From a phage, in sequence record PV730302.1: DNA of 64,000 nucleotides; one strand, 5' to 3'. Both the position numbers and the translations under genes were made by a program. Position 1 is the stretch's first letter. Every line of letters starts with the position of its first letter. This document shows, piece by piece, positions 3,280 to 36,956 of the stretch. The notes under the pieces were generated by a model that had not been told where the DNA came from, searched no databases, and saw only the letters and a program-made list of their open reading frames with translations.

Positions 3280-3411
3280 TTATTTTATTCCTCGGTTGAT
3301 AGCCTTATCGACTATCTTCCGGACTTCTCGTTTCTCGAGCCAGCATAATAATAACAAGGCTCCGAAAGAGAATAATAACAAACCTATAAAAAGCAATAAA
3401 GGACCTAGCAT
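3280..3411 (-). CDS. small hydrophobic peptide (43 aa), putative
   Basis: ATG 3411-3409 with GAGGA SD 8 nt upstream; translation MLGPLLLFIGLLLFSFGALLLLCWLEKREVRKIVDKAINRGIK; below the ORF-track size cutoff. Confidence 0.3.
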   Translation of the reverse strand: MLGPLLLFIGLLLFSFGALLLLCWLEKREVRKIVDKAINRGIK

Positions 3412-7615: not shown

Positions 7616-8116
7616 TTAAATCTTATCTTTACCGATTTCAATACACTGTTCTATTGCCGCCGGTACTTTGGTCTTGAGCTTATCGATTTGTTTCTTATAA
7701 TCACGAGCTTTACCGAAGCTCTCAGTTTCGAGCATTTCGTAATAACGAGCTTCATGGATAGAAATCTGTAGATTGATATGGTTTACGCACATCGCATACA
7801 GTTTCTGCTTTTTGTACAAATCATCTTGGCGCTTCATTTCTGCCTGGTGTTTGGCTAGTACCGCTTCACGCTTGGACTCTTGTTCACGTTGGAATTCGAT
7901 TTCTCGTTGAGCATATTTTGCACAGTTATTACCACATTGATTATTAGCTCGGGTATACACAAGTCCAGAACCAGCACGGAATTTCATTTCGCCATCGAAT
8001 TGTTTCTGTTCAGCCGCGATACGAGCTTTACCAACTTCATCAGCCGAAACTGCATCACCATATTGGACCGCGCAACCTGATAGGAGCATACTCATTGCGA
8101 TAATTAACTTTTTCAT
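7616..8116 (-). CDS. putative lipoprotein (166 aa), function unknown
   Basis: Signal peptide with lipobox MLLSGC; ATG 8116 with GAGGA SD; charged coiled-coil-like body. Confidence 0.65.
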   Translation of the reverse strand: MKKLIIAMSMLLSGCAVQYGDAVSADEVGKARIAAEQKQFDGEMKFRAGSGLVYTRANNQCGNNCAKYAQREIEFQREQESKREAVLAKHQAEMKRQDDLYKKQKLYAMCVNHINLQISIHEARYYEMLETESFGKARDYKKQIDKLKTKVPAAIEQCIEIGKDKI

Positions 8117-8123
8117 AATATCC

Positions 8124-8261
8124 TCAATTAAAACAGTTATACTTAATTTGTGCTATAAGAATAATCCATCCGATGATTAGTGTCGGAATCATTGGCGGGA
8201 TTGCCACTGCCCAATAAATGGTAAAGGCAGCCATTATAAGAAATAAAACAATTATTTTCAT
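8124..8261 (-). CDS. small membrane peptide (45 aa), putative (imm.1 position)
   Basis: ATG 8261-8259 overlaps the imm stop (ATGA); translation MKIIVLFLIMAAFTIYWAVAIPPMIPTLIIGWIILIAQIKYNCFN. Confidence 0.4.
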   Translation of the reverse strand: MKIIVLFLIMAAFTIYWAVAIPPMIPTLIIGWIILIAQIKYNCFN

Positions 8262-8494
8262 TGTTTAACAATAATGATTTGTGCGTTTGATTTACGTTCA
8301 GCGACGATAGCCCAGATTAAAGCCACTACCCAACCAATCATCGTCCAGCCTAACAGGAGATTAAGGAAGAAAATTCCTACATTACTACGAGTGCCTCGCA
8401 GAAGAGCCAGAATCCATGGTAAAAAGTAACCGATGAACATAATAACCAGAGAACCGAATCCTAAAACACCAGCACTAACGATTAAAGCTTCCAT
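8258..8494 (-). CDS. imm: superinfection immunity protein Imm-like small membrane protein
   Basis: 78 aa with two predicted TM helices; position between 43 and 42 as in T4; SD GAGGAAA; early promoter upstream. Confidence 0.7.
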   Translation of the reverse strand: MEALIVSAGVLGFGSLVIMFIGYFLPWILALLRGTRSNVGIFFLNLLLGWTMIGWVVALIWAIVAERKSNAQIIIVKQ

Positions 8495-17326: not shown

Positions 17327-17564
17327 CCTTGATGCATGATTCAGCCATATGAATTAATGTTTCTGGAGTATCATCTACCATTACATTAAAGCTAAATTCC
17401 ACAGCCCAATCAGTAGCAACATAAACTTTAATAAGCTCGTTGGTATCGCGAGTGCTCACGGCTTCAAACCAGAACTTAATGATATTCGTTTGGTTATCGT
17501 CATCAATAACTGTACAGTCATGCTCCAGTTCAAGTCCTGATTTTTTGAATTCATCTAAAGTCAT
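17301..17564 (-). CDS. hypothetical protein (87 aa; 46.2 position)
   Basis: Small acidic ORF between 47 and 46. Confidence 0.45.
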   Translation of the reverse strand: MTLDEFKKSGLELEHDCTVIDDDNQTNIIKFWFEAVSTRDTNELIKVYVATDWAVEFSFNVMVDDTPETLIHMAESCIKDAYNDENV

Positions 17565-18583
17565 CGTGTAACCTCATTATAAAGTTGTGCGGCCATAGTC
17601 TTAAGGGCTTTAACATCGTCTTCAGTGTGGCCATCAGGGAGGGCATCGATATAATCATACATCATATCCAAGAGGGACTTAACTTCATCTTCCTCTTCAG
17701 AATCATCGATATCAACACTGTTATCTACCTTAGACACAATACGCAAAGAGTGGACAACCTTTTCAAGCTCTGATTCGAACTTGGTAAGGCCATCATCGAT
17801 TTTATCGACTATAACACGAACCGCAATATTTGTAAAATCTTTGTAATCGATAGTCGCGTTAGGATAATGAATCTTACGGTGCCAACAGGTTTCATTGATG
17901 ACAAAATCCATCTTATGAGTTTCTGTATCGAAAATCCAGAAGCCACGAGGGTCGTTCTCATCACCCGCAGTTAGGGTCCATGGCGTACCAATATACTTAA
18001 CGTTTGCCGCATCAGAAATGGTGTGGAAGTGGCCAGACCATACTTGCTTATACTTCTTAAGGAAATCAGGTTCTAAACCATGTGATTTCATTCCTTTATA
18101 GAAATAGAAACCATTTAATTCCCAGTGGCCAATACAGAAATCTGCTGTAGTATTTTTGATATGGTCCATGATATCGGTTGTGTTTTCTTCACACATCCAT
18201 GGAATCAAATCAATTTCTGTACCATCAAAATTAACCGTAGTAGGTTTCTCAATAACCTTGATATGGTCGTATTTACCCAGAACTTCAGAAGCAGCGTTCG
18301 GTGTCAAGGTATTTTTGTAGTGTGCATCATGGTTACCAACAACAGTATACATGGTAATGCCATTTTCTTTAAGCAAATCTGAAATATGTCTGGCAAATTC
18401 CATGCACTTATGAGTAATTGCTTTACGAACATCAAAAATATCACCATACTGAATCCAGACAGTGATACCATTTGCTTTAGAATAATTGATGGCGTCTTTA
18501 ATGCCTGCCAATTGAATATTTTGCACCCAAGGGTCGTCGTTCTTCACTCCAAGGTGCCAGTCACCTGTGTTTAATATTTTCAT
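17561..18583 (-). CDS. 47: recombination endonuclease subunit gp47 (SbcD/Mre11-like phosphoesterase)
   Basis: Start at ATG 18583 (MKILNTGDWHLG) matching the T4 gp47 N-terminus; metallophosphoesterase motifs GDIFD and GNHD. Confidence 0.93.
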   Translation of the reverse strand: MKILNTGDWHLGVKNDDPWVQNIQLAGIKDAINYSKANGITVWIQYGDIFDVRKAITHKCMEFARHISDLLKENGITMYTVVGNHDAHYKNTLTPNAASEVLGKYDHIKVIEKPTTVNFDGTEIDLIPWMCEENTTDIMDHIKNTTADFCIGHWELNGFYFYKGMKSHGLEPDFLKKYKQVWSGHFHTISDAANVKYIGTPWTLTAGDENDPRGFWIFDTETHKMDFVINETCWHRKIHYPNATIDYKDFTNIAVRVIVDKIDDGLTKFESELEKVVHSLRIVSKVDNSVDIDDSEEEDEVKSLLDMMYDYIDALPDGHTEDDVKALKTMAAQLYNEVTR

Positions 18584-18723
18584 AAGCCAAGCGCCGTTAT
18601 TGCAATGCAAAATAAAATTATTGAAATGAACCCGTCAGGAGTGGAAAAGAATCCTATCCAACAGGCTCGTGTGAATGTGTAGAATGCCATGAATAACACG
18701 ACATATCCTAAAAGTAGTTCCAT
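18580..18723 (-). CDS. small hydrophobic peptide (47 aa), putative
   Basis: ATG 18723 with GAGGAG SD 6 nt upstream; stop overlaps the gene 47 ATG (ATGA); translation MELLLGYVVLFMAFYTFTRACWIGFFSTPDGFISIILFCIAITALGL. Confidence 0.4.
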   Translation of the reverse strand: MELLLGYVVLFMAFYTFTRACWIGFFSTPDGFISIILFCIAITALGL

Positions 18724-18764
18724 ATGTTCTCCTCAGTTGGTTCATTTTATCATCCGAATATAAA

Positions 18765-18790
18765 GCAAAAAAGGAGCCTAAGCTCCTTTA
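18765..18790 (-). terminator. rho-independent terminator
   Basis: AAGGAGC-TTAG-GCTCCTT followed by T6 on the minus strand. Confidence 0.6.
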
Positions 18791-22989: not shown

Positions 22990-23201
22990 TCTTTCACCTT
23001 CATCATTTTAGAAATAACACTATGAACAGACTGGATTCGTTTTTCGAACTCAGACGCTTCAAGACCTTTTTCAGTACTCAGGGCGCCAATAATCACAAAC
23101 AGCAATCCAAACGGGATGACCAGGATTAAAAGGCACATGATAAACAGGGCAAATGTAATATTGGCCAGGATATCAGAAACAGCATTACGAAATTTGTTCA
23201 T
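22986..23201 (-). CDS. small membrane protein (71 aa)
   Basis: Start at ATG 23201 (MNKFRN); one long hydrophobic helix. Confidence 0.45.
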   Translation of the reverse strand: MNKFRNAVSDILANITFALFIMCLLILVIPFGLLFVIIGALSTEKGLEASEFEKRIQSVHSVISKMMKVKE

Positions 23202-23326
23202 TAAAGAACCCACATGTTAGTTACAACAAATAACCATTGAGCAGGATACTCAACACCCATAATACGAACCGCATCGTTCAGAGATTCGGCTAAAGCATAA
23301 AATGTGTAGCCATAAAAATTAATCAT
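23201..23326 (-). CDS. small peptide (41 aa), putative
   Basis: ATG overlaps the gene 49 stop (ATGA) and its stop overlaps the next ATG (TAATG). Confidence 0.3.
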   Translation of the reverse strand: MINFYGYTFYALAESLNDAVRIMGVEYPAQWLFVVTNMWVL

Positions 23327-23796: not shown

Positions 23797-23801
23797 AATA
23801 A

Positions 23802-23833
23802 ACCCTTACCATTATTAGATAAGGGTATTTATT
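23802..23833 (-). promoter_or_regulatory. gene 49 translational-control hairpin (SD sequestered) with late-promoter-like AATAAATA
   Basis: Minus-strand ACCCTTA-TCTAATAATGG-TAAGGGT, perfect 7-bp stem, 3' arm containing the SD AAGGG 5 nt from the ATG; AATAAATA (7/8 of TATAAATA) just upstream. Confidence 0.5.
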
Positions 23834-23925
23834 AATATCCTAATAGTTTAGCAGTGCAACTTAGCACTAACAACAATCCGAATAAAACAACTCCTACCCA
23901 AAATACCGTAATAAGAGCCTCCATA

Positions 23926-24102
23926 TCAGACCCCATAGAATGAACGATGCAAACGTTTAAATTGACGAATCATCTTTTTAGTAGGACGGGTGTATAATCC
24001 TACACAAGTGGCCATAAACTGGTCAGTTGGACTTCCTTTGATAAGAAGTTTCCAGACCTTACCGCCATTTAATTTTTCGGTATAGACTAATACAGTTTTC
24101 AT
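23926..24102 (-). CDS. small hypothetical protein (58 aa)
   Basis: ATG 24102 overlaps the upstream stop (ATGA). Confidence 0.35.
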   Translation of the reverse strand: MKTVLVYTEKLNGGKVWKLLIKGSPTDQFMATCVGLYTRPTKKMIRQFKRLHRSFYGV

Positions 24103-24401
24103 GCGACCTCAAATTCATTATCATCGTTGGTCCAAAAACACCAGAATGAAGCTTTAGTATCTTCAAACATTTCTTTAGTGTATTCGTATACCTTACCATT
24201 GAATTCGATAGCAGTTACGCCGATGATTTCAGGGTCGCCCCATGGAGACATTTCCACCTTAAGGATTTTAACTTCAGCGCCTTCACAGAGCTCACCTGAC
24301 TCAAAACCACGATTACCATTTAATTCAGGCCAGTCAACATAATGGTCGACATCTTCTTCAGTAATACGAACAGTTTTACCTTCAAATTCAAATAAATTCA
24401 T
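24099..24401 (-). CDS. hypothetical acidic protein (100 aa)
   Basis: ORF. Confidence 0.5.
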   Translation of the reverse strand: MNLFEFEGKTVRITEEDVDHYVDWPELNGNRGFESGELCEGAEVKILKVEMSPWGDPEIIGVTAIEFNGKVYEYTKEMFEDTKASFWCFWTNDDNEFEVA

Positions 24402-24574
24402 CAGAACGCCTTATCAGCAAAGCGAAGTTGAGCTTCAAGCCAATGAATATAATCGGCTGCAGATTTAATCAAATCGGATTCTAGGTCAGGTAAAGAACCC
24501 GAATCCGACAATTCATAAAGTGAATGTTCAATCAGACGGCCTTTATGACGGCCAACTTCAATTTTGGTACTCAT
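24401..24574 (-). CDS. small hypothetical protein (57 aa)
   Basis: ATG 24574 with GGAG SD 9 nt upstream; stop overlaps the next ATG; below track size cutoff. Confidence 0.4.
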   Translation of the reverse strand: MSTKIEVGRHKGRLIEHSLYELSDSGSLPDLESDLIKSAADYIHWLEAQLRFADKAF

Positions 24575-35254: not shown

Positions 35255-35533
35255 TTATAGCTTTTTAAGCTTACGACAATAAGAATAGAACACGTCGTTA
35301 AAATTATGCTCAACCCAATTCCTCTGTATAGGCGAGGTAATGGAAAGCATATAATGAGCTTTAATTAAATCCATCCCATTTTTATTAGGACATTCTTTAT
35401 TATTAGCATTATACGTCGCTGCTACAACCTCTATCTCTCTTTTGTAAGCCACATCATCCATGATAGGCGAAAGAACAATATAAGAAATAGCCACAGCGAA
35501 CGCTAGAATTAAAATCTTTGAATTTAGGTCCAT
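35255..35533 (-). CDS. signal-anchored small protein (92 aa)
   Basis: N-terminal hydrophobic helix. Confidence 0.45.
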   Translation of the reverse strand: MDLNSKILILAFAVAISYIVLSPIMDDVAYKREIEVVAATYNANNKECPNKNGMDLIKAHYMLSITSPIQRNWVEHNFNDVFYSYCRKLKKL

Positions 35534-35540
35534 AGTACCC

Positions 35541-36113
35541 TCAACTCGTTATTTCTATCCAGTGCTTCCTGCACAATGACACGTAAGAATCGTTGCCACC
35601 TATAGAAACTTGGGCTCCGTCCTTAATTGCAATACCATCTTGGATACGAGCCGTCATAGTAGCTTTACGGCCGCAATGGCACACACCTTTGTACTCAACG
35701 AGTTTATCTGCTGTAGCGAGTAATTCAGCAGAGCCAGGAAACAGTTTACCCTGAAAATCAGTTCTTAGCCCATAGCACATAACTGGAACATTATAATTGT
35801 CTACTATCTTTGCCAGTTGTTTTATCTGTGCAGGTTCTAAGAACTGTGCTTCATCCACAAATACACAGTGGATATCTTTTTGAGATTCAGCCCAACGATA
35901 GAACTCGTATAGGTCCATATCCGGAGTCACGGCATTAGCCTCTTGACTAATCCCTATACGAGACGAAATGCTATGGCTTGATTCTCTATTGTCTATCGCA
36001 GGCTTTAAAAGGAGTACGCCCATACCGCGTTCTTTGTAGTTATGAGCCGCTGTTAGCAATGAAGCGGTCTTCCCAGAATTCATCGCCGCATAGTGAAAAT
36101 AAAGTTGAGCCAT
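35541..36113 (-). CDS. tk: thymidine kinase
   Basis: P-loop AAMNSGKT and C-terminal CxxC zinc ribbon; high similarity to recalled T4 Tk. Confidence 0.92.
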   Translation of the reverse strand: MAQLYFHYAAMNSGKTASLLTAAHNYKERGMGVLLLKPAIDNRESSHSISSRIGISQEANAVTPDMDLYEFYRWAESQKDIHCVFVDEAQFLEPAQIKQLAKIVDNYNVPVMCYGLRTDFQGKLFPGSAELLATADKLVEYKGVCHCGRKATMTARIQDGIAIKDGAQVSIGGNDSYVSLCRKHWIEITS

Positions 36114-36122
36114 ATTACCTTC

Positions 36123-36329
36123 TTAAAGACTATTTACATAAGCAATTAATTCATTTTCTTTCTCATCAAATCGATTAGCAAATTCTTCCAGATGGTCGGC
36201 ATCTATAGGGCCATATTCATCATAAAAAGAATTTGCTTCTGCATGCTCATCTAGAAGTTCATGGATAAGCTCAAACAATTTATCTTTCTGCTCTTTACTC
36301 AGACTCATAACCATTGTACCTTTAAGCAA
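36123..36329 (-). CDS. hypothetical acidic protein (68 aa)
   Basis: ORF. Confidence 0.4.
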   Translation of the reverse strand: MLKGTMVMSLSKEQKDKLFELIHELLDEHAEANSFYDEYGPIDADHLEEFANRFDEKENELIAYVNSL

Positions 36330-36517
36330 TATTCTTCAACATGCTGTTTGCGTTTATTTTTATCTATAAAAGTATATTCAACATATTCACCAATATACCA
36401 TTTATCGGTGTTATGTTGACTTTTTATAGGGCATTTAGTTACTCGGGTTTCGGACCAGTGTCGAATAATTTCCGCTTTATTTTTAGGGTCAAACGGATGC
36501 GGGTAATGGGCTTTCAT
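36305..36517 (-). CDS. hypothetical protein (70 aa)
   Basis: ORF. Confidence 0.4.
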   Translation of the reverse strand: MKAHYPHPFDPKNKAEIIRHWSETRVTKCPIKSQHNTDKWYIGEYVEYTFIDKNKRKQHVEEYCLKVQWL

Positions 36518-36956
36518 AATCTACCACCACTAAATTAATATCAGGAGTAAACAAATTAATCAATTGATAAACCTTGTCCCAATCACCACCAGCAATACCA
36601 CAACCGATGCGAGGGATATAAATTCTTGGTTTAAACAAAAGACCCTTTGCGGTACGGTTTAATTCTATCATACAGTTTACTAAAGCACCGTAATCAAGAT
36701 TAGGGCCCGGTTCGTATTGGGTGTATAAATTATAGCAAATTTGGCCCTTATTACCTGTGGCTTGAGTAAACGTGCCAAGTTTTTCCAAATGGCCTAAATA
36801 AGTGGTTTTATCGATAGCGAGAATAGGCGGATAAGCCTTAGCCAATTGCCCAGCTACACCTGAACCCATTGTATGGAAACAGTTACACCCGTGAGCAACA
36901 TTATTACCTTGAAGAAACAGGGCGACGATATCGCCCTTAATATAATCAATAATCAT
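36489..36956 (-). CDS. macrodomain protein (ADP-ribose-binding/processing fold)
   Basis: GDIVALF...NVAHGCNCFHTMGSGVAGQ and IYIPRIGCGIAGGDW match macrodomain signature blocks; ATG overlaps the upstream stop (ATGA). Confidence 0.7.
   Translation of the reverse strand: MIIDYIKGDIVALFLQGNNVAHGCNCFHTMGSGVAGQLAKAYPPILAIDKTTYLGHLEKLGTFTQATGNKGQICYNLYTQYEPGPNLDYGALVNCMIELNRTAKGLLFKPRIYIPRIGCGIAGGDWDKVYQLINLFTPDINLVVVDYESPLPASV

Follow-up and report, generated by a model that had tools for sequence, protein, structure and literature searches.

The open reading frame (ORF) at positions 18580-18723 on the minus strand is gene 47.1, a small membrane-protein gene that was annotated earlier in phage T4. 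It is very probably a translated early gene that encodes a membrane peptide, is coupled to gene 47 and acts as a dispensable accessory factor, with translation, membrane insertion, reinitiation and a host-directed role being predicted. The 64,000-nucleotide stretch of phage DNA analysed here (PV730302.1, called the window below) is that of a JS98-like T-even phage (Dhakavirus) with its genes on the minus strand. A preliminary description of the window had listed six micro-ORFs, and all six (A to F, A being gene 47.1) are present on the minus strand at the coordinates given below, each abutting its neighbours. The five ORFs other than 47.1 are also real and were catalogued before in related phages, so that the finding is correct but ordinary; they are unrelated small T-even genes in the usual overlapping packing. 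The ORFs had been called unannotated, which is incorrect, since A is annotated in T4 and JS98, and B, D, E and F appear in public records as phrog_3610, phrog_3350, DUF7279 and Pin-like proteins, respectively.

Identification and Conservation of Gene 47.1

18580-18723, minus strand: gene 47.1 (ORF A), a predicted two-helix hydrophobic peptide of 47 aa; its stop (TGA) and the gene 47 start (ATG) overlap as ATGA
17561-18583, minus strand: gene 47, SbcD/Mre11-like nuclease subunit; ATG at 18583-18581, without a usable Shine-Dalgarno sequence (SD)

The sequence comparisons showed the integrity of the ORF, its homology, purifying selection and the correlation between the presence of 47.1 and the absence of an SD ahead of gene 47. 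The peptide matched phrog_6693 with residues 1-47 on profile positions 1-47 (E = 1.5e-30), and was 98% identical to gp47.1 of JS10 and JS98 and 78% identical to gp47.1 of T4 (over 45 aa). The gene is annotated with the same 4-nt overlap in T4 (NP_813808.1) and in JS98, and the T4 coordinates of 47.1 and gene 47 are 36444-36584 and 35428-36447, respectively. Gene 47.1 is unannotated in C6, IME341, VR5, ESCO10, IME08 and SP18. The T4 and window proteins are homologous over their full length, both genes lie directly upstream of gene 47 with the 4-nt ATGA, and both products have the same hydrophobic two-segment build, with a core that is identical over window residues 17-40 (FTRACWIGFFSTPDGFISIILFCI). 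The window protein is one residue longer at its N-terminus, and the upstream neighbour is an a-gt.2-like gene in the window and a-gt in T4.

An intact 47.1 frame was found with tblastn in 602 phage records; among the 40 of these that were sampled, the match overlapped an annotated gene 47 in nearly all annotated records. In 8/8 carriers examined, 47.1 adjoined gene 47 on the upstream side with a stop/start overlap of 4 nt. The dN/dS ratio was 0.04-0.18, even at dS values of up to 1.1-1.5, and 25 of the 47 alignment columns were invariant, including A-C-W-I-G-F-F (positions 20-26), T28, P29 and G31. Gene 47.1 is absent in RB69 and PEi20, and in IME08 its place is taken by a homing-endonuclease-like ORF that terminates at the start of gene 47; RB69, PEi20 and the IME08-type Dhakaviruses have genes 46 and 47 without 47.1. 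A compensated double frameshift in Tequatrovirus L14 scrambles the conserved core of 47.1 and keeps a 45-codon ORF with the ATGA end. A copy of gp47.1 with 66% identity is encoded by an unrelated phage of the Vequintavirinae, where it does not lie next to a gene 47.

The GRAVY value of gp47.1 was 1.60, and its two hydrophobic segments flank an STPDG turn. The AF2 model placed helices at residues 2-22 and 29-44 (pLDDT 72), which is a model of moderate confidence from a shallow alignment of seven sequences that is silent on membrane topology. Gene 47.1 therefore encodes a predicted membrane peptide, and insertion into the membrane is the most likely fate of gp47.1. The preliminary description had regarded A, B and C as hydrophobic single-helix peptides; all three are of the membrane type, and A is predicted to form two helices instead of one. 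An exhaustive profile search with the 47.1 alignment (1.84 billion representatives) returned only its own cluster and one spurious repetitive match, and a word-indexed search gave matches only among T-even phage proteins. Because the family has no relatives outside the T-even phages in those searches, a function for gp47.1 is not transferable from other proteins. A literature search on gp47.1 and T4 47.1 returned nothing relevant.

Upstream Signals and Coupling to Gene 47

18729-18734, minus strand: SD of 47.1, GAGGAG, 5 nt ahead of the 47.1 ATG
18744-18767, minus strand: promoter-like TGCTTTA-N11-TAAAAT (MotA-box-like element plus -10), read by eye, with a putative function
18770-18789, minus strand: terminator-like hairpin AAAGGAGC-TTAG-GCTCCTTT plus T-run, with an 8-bp stem, closing the upstream a-gt.2-like gene

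The SD of 47.1 formed an anti-SD duplex of -9.2 kcal/mol, the strongest among 18 starts tested, and the start of gene 47 gave only -1.7 kcal/mol. The TGCTTTA/TAAAAT motif was present with equal spacing directly ahead of gene 47 in RB69 and was also found ahead of 47.1 in JS98, VR5, ESCO10 and SP18. Two terminator-like sites were observed in the region against 0.2 expected, and T4, RB69 and IME08 each have a hairpin equivalent to the one at 18770-18789. In the window, 47.1 sits behind a terminator, a promoter-like element and an SD that serve gene 47 directly in RB69 and PEi20, and it would fill the slot between gene 47 and this unit with its strong SD. In T4, a -10-like TATAAT overlaps the ATG of 47.1, and a transcript starting from there would therefore not encode 47.1. 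In contrast, the distance from the -10-like element to the ATG is about 20 nt longer in the window than in T4, and transcription from the promoter-like element could therefore yield an RNA that carries the SD of 47.1.

The coupling of 47.1 to gene 47 proposed in the preliminary description was supported by a comparison of ten phages, eight with 47.1 and two without. In the phages with 47.1, gene 47 had no SD (-1.7 to -3.0 kcal/mol) and showed the ATGA overlap (8/8), and in the phages without it (RB69 and PEi20), gene 47 had a strong SD of -6.3 and -7.1 kcal/mol, respectively, at a spacing of 5 (2/2). Since gene 47 is without its own SD in all eight carriers examined, coupled reinitiation is likely. 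The coupling is thus backed by a natural control, and the comparison of start regions suggests that reinitiation itself is a likely route. Ribosomes would load at the SD of 47.1 and read its 47 codons; after stopping at the UGA of AUGA, they would start again on gene 47, which lacks an SD.

Termination-reinitiation at AUGA in coupled overlapping cistrons is widely described in T4 and in bacterial operons. The window likewise has AUGA as stop and start, with a downstream cistron that lacks an SD (gene 47 after 47.1, and B after imm), and the SD is back on gene 47 where 47.1 is absent upstream. Unlike in typical coupled cistrons, the upstream cistron here encodes a conserved peptide under its own selection.

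Expression, Dispensability and Proposed Function of Gene 47.1

The early transcript class and the dispensability of 47.1 come from published T4 data. The RNA class of T4 47.1 is 'early' (PMC9697503). In the same T4 omics table, 47.1 has no protein class and no UniProt entry (PMC9697503), and it was therefore perhaps not searchable as a protein. A literature search for ribosome profiling of small T4 proteins found no dataset. In CRISPRi-ART, T4 47.1 was scored as 'Not Fit', and dCas13d guides on the 47.1 ribosome-binding site caused no fitness loss (PMC11879866). In the HIDEN-SEQ study of T4, 47.1 was classed as 'Non-essential', with insertions in 10/12 TA sites, and gp47 as 'Essential', with insertions in 3/75 TA sites; genes 46 and 47 were both essential in this screen, in which disruption of 47.1 was tolerated, and the log2FC of 47.1 was 0.01 in the one condition comparison considered, so that 47.1 might still have a conditional phenotype in one of the hosts used there (10.1101/2025.11.20.689424). 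Since blocking of the 47.1 ribosome-binding site and insertions are tolerated in T4, gene 47 is translated well enough without translation of 47.1, and reinitiation is at most one route to it. The system also differs in this respect from typical coupled cistrons, as the T4 screens show that the downstream essential gene is functional with the upstream cistron blocked or interrupted. Coupling would add to the expression of gene 47, yet it would not be indispensable.

Most likely, the 47-residue gp47.1 inserts into the inner membrane of the host, where it would form two short helices connected by the invariant GFFSTPDG turn. The protein would be a dispensable accessory with a sequence-specific membrane target, probably directed at the host or at a competitor.

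It is very unlikely that 47.1 is a leader ORF only, with a functionless peptide, which serves gene 47 solely because its translation brings ribosomes to a start that lacks an SD. This would fit the SD pattern of gene 47 with and without 47.1, the retained 45-codon ORF and ATGA end in L14, and the IME08 homing endonuclease ORF, which takes the upstream slot and also ends at the start of gene 47. However, the constraint on the amino acids is strong (dN/dS as above, p=6e-6), and the 25 invariant columns persist at saturating synonymous divergence. Because strong purifying selection and invariant columns are unexpected for a pure leader, this explanation was rejected. It also does not account for the Vequintavirinae copy, which has no gene 47 downstream, and T4 in which 47.1 is blocked or interrupted does not show the phenotype of gene 47 loss.

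It is decidedly unlikely that gp47.1 serves the gp46/gp47 (Rad50/Mre11-like) nuclease as a dedicated membrane partner, made in cis by coupling and tethering or regulating the nuclease at the inner membrane. The coupled position of 47.1 directly upstream of gene 47 in all eight carriers examined and its overlap with gene 47 in nearly all annotated records among the 40 of 602 sampled are in keeping with such a role, and a report from around 1981 reportedly described a DNase activity that is associated with the membrane and requires T4 genes 46 and 47. However, RB69, PEi20 and the IME08-type Dhakaviruses keep genes 46 and 47 without 47.1, T4 tolerates disruption of 47.1 in a screen in which genes 46 and 47 are essential, and a copy of 47.1 occurs in an unrelated phage outside the context of gene 47. 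There is a small chance that the invariant core of gp47.1 binds an inner-membrane partner and that its co-translation with gp47 is functional, with gp47.1 recruiting or gating gp46/gp47 or linking production of the nuclease to a membrane event. If so, a membrane role of gp47.1 could explain the DNase said to depend on genes 46 and 47.

ORF B and imm

8124-8261, minus strand: ORF B, a 45-aa hydrophobic peptide of the 42.1/RB69 ORF054c family; its start (ATG) and the imm stop (TGA) overlap as ATGA, without an SD
8258-8494, minus strand: imm, for superinfection immunity (78 aa), which is the partner of B on the upstream side (PF14373, phrog_1039, JS98 annotation)

ORF B lies in the interval from gene 43 to gene 42, and its stop is 7 nt ahead of the next ATG and forms part of the SD of that gene (TGAGGA). 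B matched phrog_3610 over its full length (E = 8.6e-22) and corresponds to JS98 orf44, RB69 ORF054c and VR7 42.1; PF26865 is listed for relatives of B as a precomputed assignment in a protein database. Homologues of B were found in 763 phage records; the one in T4 is a 49-aa ORF that is not annotated. The identity to the T4, RB69 and VR5 copies was 46-59%, and the C-terminal motif of the family (MIPTL..GW....Q.KY.C.N) is conserved in B. In RB69 and JS98, the annotated family members lack part of the N-terminus (36 aa), and the intact 49-aa copy of T4 is omitted from its reference. As the 42.1-type gene is absent from the T4 reference annotation, annotation-based genome-wide T4 screens never scored it.

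The ATG of the family overlapped the upstream stop as ATGA in 9/9 phages, with imm or an arabinose-5-P isomerase gene upstream; the upstream partner is imm in the window and in T4 and a sugar isomerase gene in RB69 and PEi20. B is probably a second membrane micro-protein that would be translated only by reinitiation after whatever gene lies upstream. Imm supplied from a plasmid is by itself able to exclude T4, through its binding to the tape-measure protein (10.64898/2026.03.06.709160). Because Imm alone is sufficient and the gene ahead of B is another one in RB69 and PEi20, B as an obligate partner of Imm was rejected.

ORF C

3280-3411, minus strand: ORF C, 43 aa, with one transmembrane (TM) segment and a cationic tail, on a segment of about 125 nt that is present or absent among Dhakaviruses

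The start of C overlaps the stop of a 297-aa ORF (ATGCTAG), and a 77-nt gap separates C from uvsX, so that there is no downstream overlap. C had been described as almost entirely hydrophobic; instead, it has a single TM segment, an N-terminal helix formed by hydrophobic residues 1-25, followed by an amphipathic tail with a net charge of +4. The segment with C was found in 22 records with blastn. MX01, VR5 and ESCO10 lack it, and T4 has it in a frameshifted form. C was called in three GenBank records (NC-G, EcWhh-1 and CLB_P2). The variable sites of C comprised 6 synonymous and 5 non-synonymous sites (p=0.024), and no PHROG or Pfam family matched it. C is a probable coding sequence, and its product would be a dispensable peptide with a TM helix and a cationic tail. 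This peptide resembles the small membrane peptides of the type I toxin kind only in its TM helix and charged tail; unlike these, C has no sequence family match and is missing from many close relatives.

ORFs around Gene 49

23201-23326, minus strand: ORF D, a non-membrane peptide of 41 aa; overlaps the gene 49 stop as ATGA and the start of a 55.8-like gene as TAATG
23926-24102, minus strand: ORF E, a 58-aa basic (+10) protein of the DUF7279/RB69 ORF087c family; ATGA with the stop of an upstream 100-aa ORF
24401-24574, minus strand: ORF F, a 57-aa acidic protein with a match to the C-terminal part of the PinA family only; TGATG with the start of the 100-aa ORF
23832-23936, minus strand: ORF G, a 34-aa hydrophobic ORF (or 30 aa with the second ATG, at 23924, as start), on a present/absent segment of about 94 nt between E and gene 49

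The products of D, E and F are soluble. D matched phrog_3350 (VR7 gp080-like, E = 1.2e-22), had a GRAVY value of 0.63 without a TM segment, and is annotated in IME341, MX01 and VR5. It lies directly after gene 49, whose stop it overlaps as ATGA in six Dhakaviruses, with dN/dS values of 0.14-0.27 (p about 1e-4) for D. E is orf76 of JS98 and matched PF23945 (DUF7279) with 59.7 bits against a cut-off of 24.5 (E = 2.5e-16) and phrog_3272 (E = 1.2e-33), with dN/dS values of 0.02-0.42. F is orf78 of JS98 and matched phrog_9092, a short Pin-like family (E = 1.2e-40).

T4 PinA is an inhibitor of the host Lon protease (PF10465), and F, at the pin locus next to gene 49, matches its C-terminal part. The match to PF10465 reached 28.0 bits against a cut-off of 27 and covered profile positions 88-136 of 136 only, the N-terminal part being absent; F has 57 aa and T4 PinA 161 aa, with the N-terminal two-thirds missing in F. 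The 100-aa ORF downstream of F had a weak match to the N-terminal part of the PinA PHROG. As the two ORFs resemble the C-terminal and N-terminal parts of PinA, respectively, the pin locus looks split and reordered.

ORF G is a seventh hydrophobic ORF, which the preliminary description had omitted, and its coding status is doubtful. Its first ATG is lost in SP18 and P8, and its variable sites were 1 synonymous and 4 non-synonymous. It is annotated with 30 aa in YenP8 and UPEC01. A high identity between genera that is specific to G was rejected, as G is part of a larger mosaic block, in which E and the 5' portion of gene 49 are also included. C and G were also considered as mobile cassettes, but neither direct nor inverted repeats were convincingly present at their flanks.

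Coding Potential and Packing of the Small ORFs

Purifying selection was strong for A, B, D, E and F, with dN/dS values of 0.02-0.5, and weak for C. For A (p=6e-6), B (p=2e-6 to 8e-3) and D (p about 1e-4), synonymous changes were enriched in no frame but the proposed one, and both alternative frames of A, B and D contained stops. The local copy of Pfam, without PF26865, had no family for A, B, C, D or G. That the micro-ORFs are genuine small coding genes is upheld by conserved frames and by purifying selection out to T4 and RB69, more weakly for C. The frames were kept in close relatives for A, B, D, E and F. The refuting outcome named in the preliminary description, a lack of frame conservation in close relatives, applies in part to C, as described above.

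That the micro-ORFs arose by chance as open frames between genes in AT-rich DNA, conserved as regulatory RNA or DNA elements and not for their proteins, is exceedingly improbable and already refuted for A, B, D, E and F, for which the pattern of changes by codon position and the synonymous enrichment specific to the frame decide the matter and where the frame of B is kept at a protein identity of only 46-59% across T4, RB69, PEi20 and VR5. This explanation may fit G, with its excess of non-synonymous sites, its first ATG lost in two genomes and its position in the gene 49 leader beside a fully conserved hairpin. It may partly fit C, which has few variants and lies on a segment absent in many relatives and degraded in T4; however, the charged tail of C is invariant in the protein despite three silent changes (p=0.024).

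The good SDs ascribed to the six ORFs were confirmed for A, C, D, E and F; B has none. A stop codon that overlaps the start of the next gene was found for A, D and F, for E only with the doubtful ORF G, and not for B and C; B and C, and also D and E, overlap a neighbour at their own start. Of the neighbouring genes described as essential, genes 47 and 49 are so and imm is not. ATGA overlaps are routine junctions in T-even phages (13/54 junctions in JS98), and the overlap as a special feature of micro-ORFs was rejected.

Implications

As a discovery, the micro-ORFs carry little weight, since the genes are already in curated T-even annotations and in PHROG and Pfam families. Their annotation is inconsistent among T-even phages. 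The phages with and without 47.1 provide a clean natural case in which a gene lost its own ribosome-binding site after an upstream ORF captured the initiation region. Genes 47.1 and 42.1 might belong to a class of phage membrane micro-proteins, each with a host inner-membrane protein as its target, a weaker variant of the membrane-partner idea set out for gp47.1. If this is true, such proteins would be relevant only on hosts or in competition settings outside those assayed so far. The peptides are in any case cheap targets for host-range or defence-conditional screens.

Small ORFs and their junctions

By DNA similarity, the window belongs to a JS98-like T-even phage of the genus Dhakavirus, and C6, WG01, IME341, JS98 and other phages shared 92-97% DNA identity with it. 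The genes under discussion are on the minus strand and follow the T4 order uvsX ... imm, 43 ... 46, 47, 55 ... 49. The six small ORFs of the preliminary description (A to F) were all found at their reported positions, together with a seventh hydrophobic ORF missing from it (G); the junctions of A to F were read directly from the sequence:

A (gene 47.1): 18580-18723, minus strand, 47 aa; terminal TGA overlaps the gene 47 ATG
B: 8124-8261, minus strand, 45 aa; initial ATG overlaps the imm TGA
C: 3280-3411, minus strand, 43 aa; starts inside the last codons of a 297-aa ORF, 77 nt from its end to uvsX
D: 23201-23326, minus strand, 41 aa; ATGA with the gene 49 stop, TAATG with the next gene
E: 23926-24102, minus strand, 58 aa; ATGA with the stop of an upstream 100-aa ORF
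F: 24401-24574, minus strand, 57 aa; TGATG with the start of the 100-aa ORF upstream of E
G: 23832-23936, minus strand; hydrophobic ORF

The stop codons had been described as overlapping the start of the next gene, as those of A, D and F do, but B and C overlap at their own starts and C stops short of uvsX. In predicted anti-SD (Shine-Dalgarno) pairing, A was strong and ranked first among 18 starts tested (-9.2 kcal/mol); C, D, E and F paired moderately and B showed no pairing, so that the claim of good SDs did not hold for B. According to hydropathy, A and B are nearly all hydrophobic (GRAVY 1.6), as had been claimed for A to C; C has a single TM segment followed by a +4 tail, and none of D, E and F is a membrane peptide. 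Nor is A a single helix: hydropathy gave two hydrophobic segments flanking an STPDG turn, and AF2 gave helices 2-22 and 29-44 (pLDDT 72).

Families or public annotations exist for all six ORFs, which had been called unannotated. A, annotated as 47.1 in T4 and JS98, is a member of phrog_6693, and its frame is present in 602 phage records. B is a member of phrog_3610 with homologues in 763 records; its counterparts are JS98 orf44 and RB69 ORF054c, whose annotated versions are truncated, and VR7 "42.1", and PF26865 is assigned to its relatives in the protein database. D is phrog_3350 (annotated in IME341, MX01 and VR5), E is DUF7279/RB69 ORF087c, and F (57 aa) matches PinA in the C-terminal part only. 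C has no family and is nevertheless called in NC-G, EcWhh-1 and CLB_P2. Automated annotations of these small genes are patchy, and 47.1 was left out of those of C6, IME341, VR5, ESCO10 and SP18. The annotation of ESCO10 (L008, OM386655.1) is untrustworthy because its GenBank product names are clearly shifted or misassigned, DNA polymerase being "hypothetical" and small ORFs being named tail fibre, RNase H, rIIA and rIIB. ATGA overlaps are not a special trait of the micro-ORFs, since in the corresponding JS98 block 4-nt overlaps make up 13 of the 54 annotated junctions. The observation was largely correct and the ORFs are real genes, but a reading of them as unannotated and noteworthy found no support: they belong to the known small genes of T-even phages and show the usual close packing.

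Coding evidence

Frames were traced in relatives by local tblastn with low-complexity masking off, and dN/dS ranges were obtained by codon-based comparison. The frames of A, B, D, E and F were found in related phages, a check that the preliminary description had proposed, with dN/dS of 0.04-0.18 (A; dS as high as 1.5 versus T4, JoYop and LTH01), 0.09-0.53 (B), 0.14-0.27 (D), 0.02-0.42 (E) and 0.08-0.48 (F). Synonymous enrichment in the proposed frame gave p=6e-6 for A versus T4, p=2e-6 to 8e-3 for B and p of about 1e-4 for D, while the two alternative frames of the identical alignments, read as a control, contained stops and lacked synonymous enrichment. These substitution patterns leave no reasonable doubt that A, B, D, E and F encode proteins. 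C is probably coding, with 6 synonymous and 5 non-synonymous changes at 11 variable sites (p=0.024) and a protein-invariant charged tail among six copies. Coding is doubtful for G (34 aa, or 30 aa from a second ATG at 23924), which had 1 synonymous versus 4 non-synonymous variable sites, no coding signal in substitutions, and no first ATG in two genomes.

C and G lie on present/absent segments, and neither had flanking repeats pointing to mobility. About 20 records carry the C segment (~125 nt), which other Dhakaviruses cleanly lack. The G segment (~94 nt) occurs in 21 records of Dhakavirus and Gaprivervirus phages and is likewise cleanly missing elsewhere in Dhakavirus, as in JS98, VR5 and ESCO10; the high identity of G between the two genera reflects a larger mosaic block that includes it. 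Between b-gt and segA, T4 has a 24-aa ORF, MLGPLLLIIGLGLFAFWDFFCYID (L009 4276-4350), a frameshifted and stop-interrupted trace of C, and this remnant shows that the C gene predates Dhakavirus and decayed in T4.

Gene 47.1 and the translation of gene 47

Upstream of 47.1 are, in order, a terminator-like hairpin, TGCTTTA-N11-TAAAAT (a putative MotA-box-like middle promoter), GAGGAG and the ATG. RB69 lacks 47.1, and there a matching hairpin, TGCTTTA, TAAAAT and a GAGGA SD run directly into gene 47. The SD at gene 47 was compared in ten phages. All eight 47.1 carriers (the window, JS98, IME341, MX01, VR5, ESCO10, SP18 and T4) shared the ATGA overlap and lacked a usable SD at gene 47 (-1.7 to -3.0 kcal/mol), whereas the two phages without 47.1, RB69 and PEi20, had a strong SD at spacing 5 (-6.3 and -7.1 kcal/mol). 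This pattern without exception, together with the RB69 layout, indicates that 47.1 separates gene 47 from its ancestral initiation region. Since gene 47 has no usable SD in any of the eight carriers, it is most likely translated by termination-reinitiation after 47.1.

In IME08, the 47.1 slot holds a 205-aa homing-endonuclease-like ORF whose stop lies 11 nt beyond the gene 47 ATG, which marks the position as a hot spot for insertion and indicates that phages of the genus can do without 47.1. This ORF (L003 2071-2688) is preceded by the same hairpin and promoter-like element and also occurs in QL01-type genomes; in the IME08 record, gene 47 is annotated with an N-terminal extension reading through the junction.

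The coupling cannot be obligatory, given published T4 data. CRISPRi-ART guides against the 47.1 RBS were scored "Not Fit" and gene 47 "Semi-Fit" (PMC11879866 supplement), and in the HIDEN-SEQ supplement (10.1101/2025.11.20.689424) insertions hit 10/12 TA sites of 47.1 ("Non-essential") and 3/75 sites of gp47 ("Essential"). Furthermore, a -10-like TATAAT overlaps the T4 47.1 ATG, so a transcript begun there would not encode 47.1. The PMC9697503 supplement lists the T4 47.1 transcript as "early", with no protein-level class recorded there.

ORF B and the imm region

The ATG of B overlapped the stop of the upstream gene in 9/9 phages checked, this gene being imm in Dhakavirus and T4 and an arabinose-5-P isomerase in RB69 and PEi20. 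Anti-SD pairing was nil to weak in six imm-coupled Dhakaviruses (0 to -2.2 kcal/mol) and -2.8 kcal/mol in PEi20. The T4 homologue has AGAGAAGGA directly against the ATG (spacing 0), and the RB69 homologue has a moderate, well-spaced SD (-5.9 kcal/mol at spacing 5). From the constant overlap and mostly weak pairing, reinitiation appears to be the main route of B translation. Imm expressed alone from a plasmid excludes T4 through binding to the tape-measure protein (10.64898/2026.03.06.709160), which rules out B as an obligate Imm partner.

Between imm and gene 42, T4 carries an intact 49-aa ORF (NC_000866 26227-26376, minus strand; L009 6228-6377) homologous to B and RB69 ORF054c. Its start codon shares ATGA with the imm stop, and its TGA lies within the gene 42 SD; it is absent from the T4 RefSeq annotation and from the annotation behind HIDEN-SEQ. 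The VR5 copy of B (L007 7020-7160) has 59% protein identity to that of the window, in a block of about 90% DNA identity, and is probably a divergent allele brought in by recombination. The gene after B (7616-8116, minus strand) encodes a 166-aa phrog_1754 protein with the lipoprotein signal MKKLIIAMSMLLSGC; imm, B and this gene seem to be a run of envelope-directed genes.

The pin locus and the gene 49 leader

The pin locus (24099-24574, minus strand) looks split and reordered in the window. F matches PinA in the family's C-terminal part, the downstream 100-aa ORF (phrog_16960) has a weak match to the N-terminal part (phrog_2167 positions 5-75, E=2e-6), and the C-terminus of E is similar to the final 14 residues of T4 PinA. 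Directly upstream of gene 49 (23797-23831, minus strand), a hairpin, ACCCTTA-N11-TAAGGGT, is preceded by TAATAAATA, similar to a T4 late promoter. The hairpin is 100% conserved in all aligned relatives, and the arrangement probably represents the known stem-loop/late-promoter control of T4 gene 49.

Role of the 47.1 peptide

In the alignment of gp47.1, the 47.1 peptide, 25 of 47 columns were invariant, including A-C-W-I-G-F-F at 20-26, T28, P29 and G31. Such strong amino-acid constraint is incompatible with a pure leader-ORF role and suggests a specific interaction. The family occurs only in T-even phages, with one exception, Escherichia phage LTH01 of the unrelated Vequintavirinae, in which a 66%-identical frame of 47 codons (L013 401-544) has no canonical start codon and lies among hypothetical genes with no gene 47 adjacent, which suggests horizontal transfer and possible decay. 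In Tequatrovirus L14 (L014 375-512), a compensated double frameshift scrambles the conserved core and leaves both termini and the ATGA overlap with gene 47; this could be a real variant or paired sequencing errors.

A role dedicated to the gp46/gp47 nuclease is disfavoured by the LTH01 copy and by the absence of 47.1 from RB69, PEi20 and IME08. The same distribution favours, with moderate confidence, an autonomous, dispensable accessory membrane function of gp47.1, the membrane mechanism being a putative one. Useful by-products are an annotation gap in the T4 reference, where the 42.1-type ORF is missing, and a natural control supporting the view that gene 47 is translationally coupled to 47.1.
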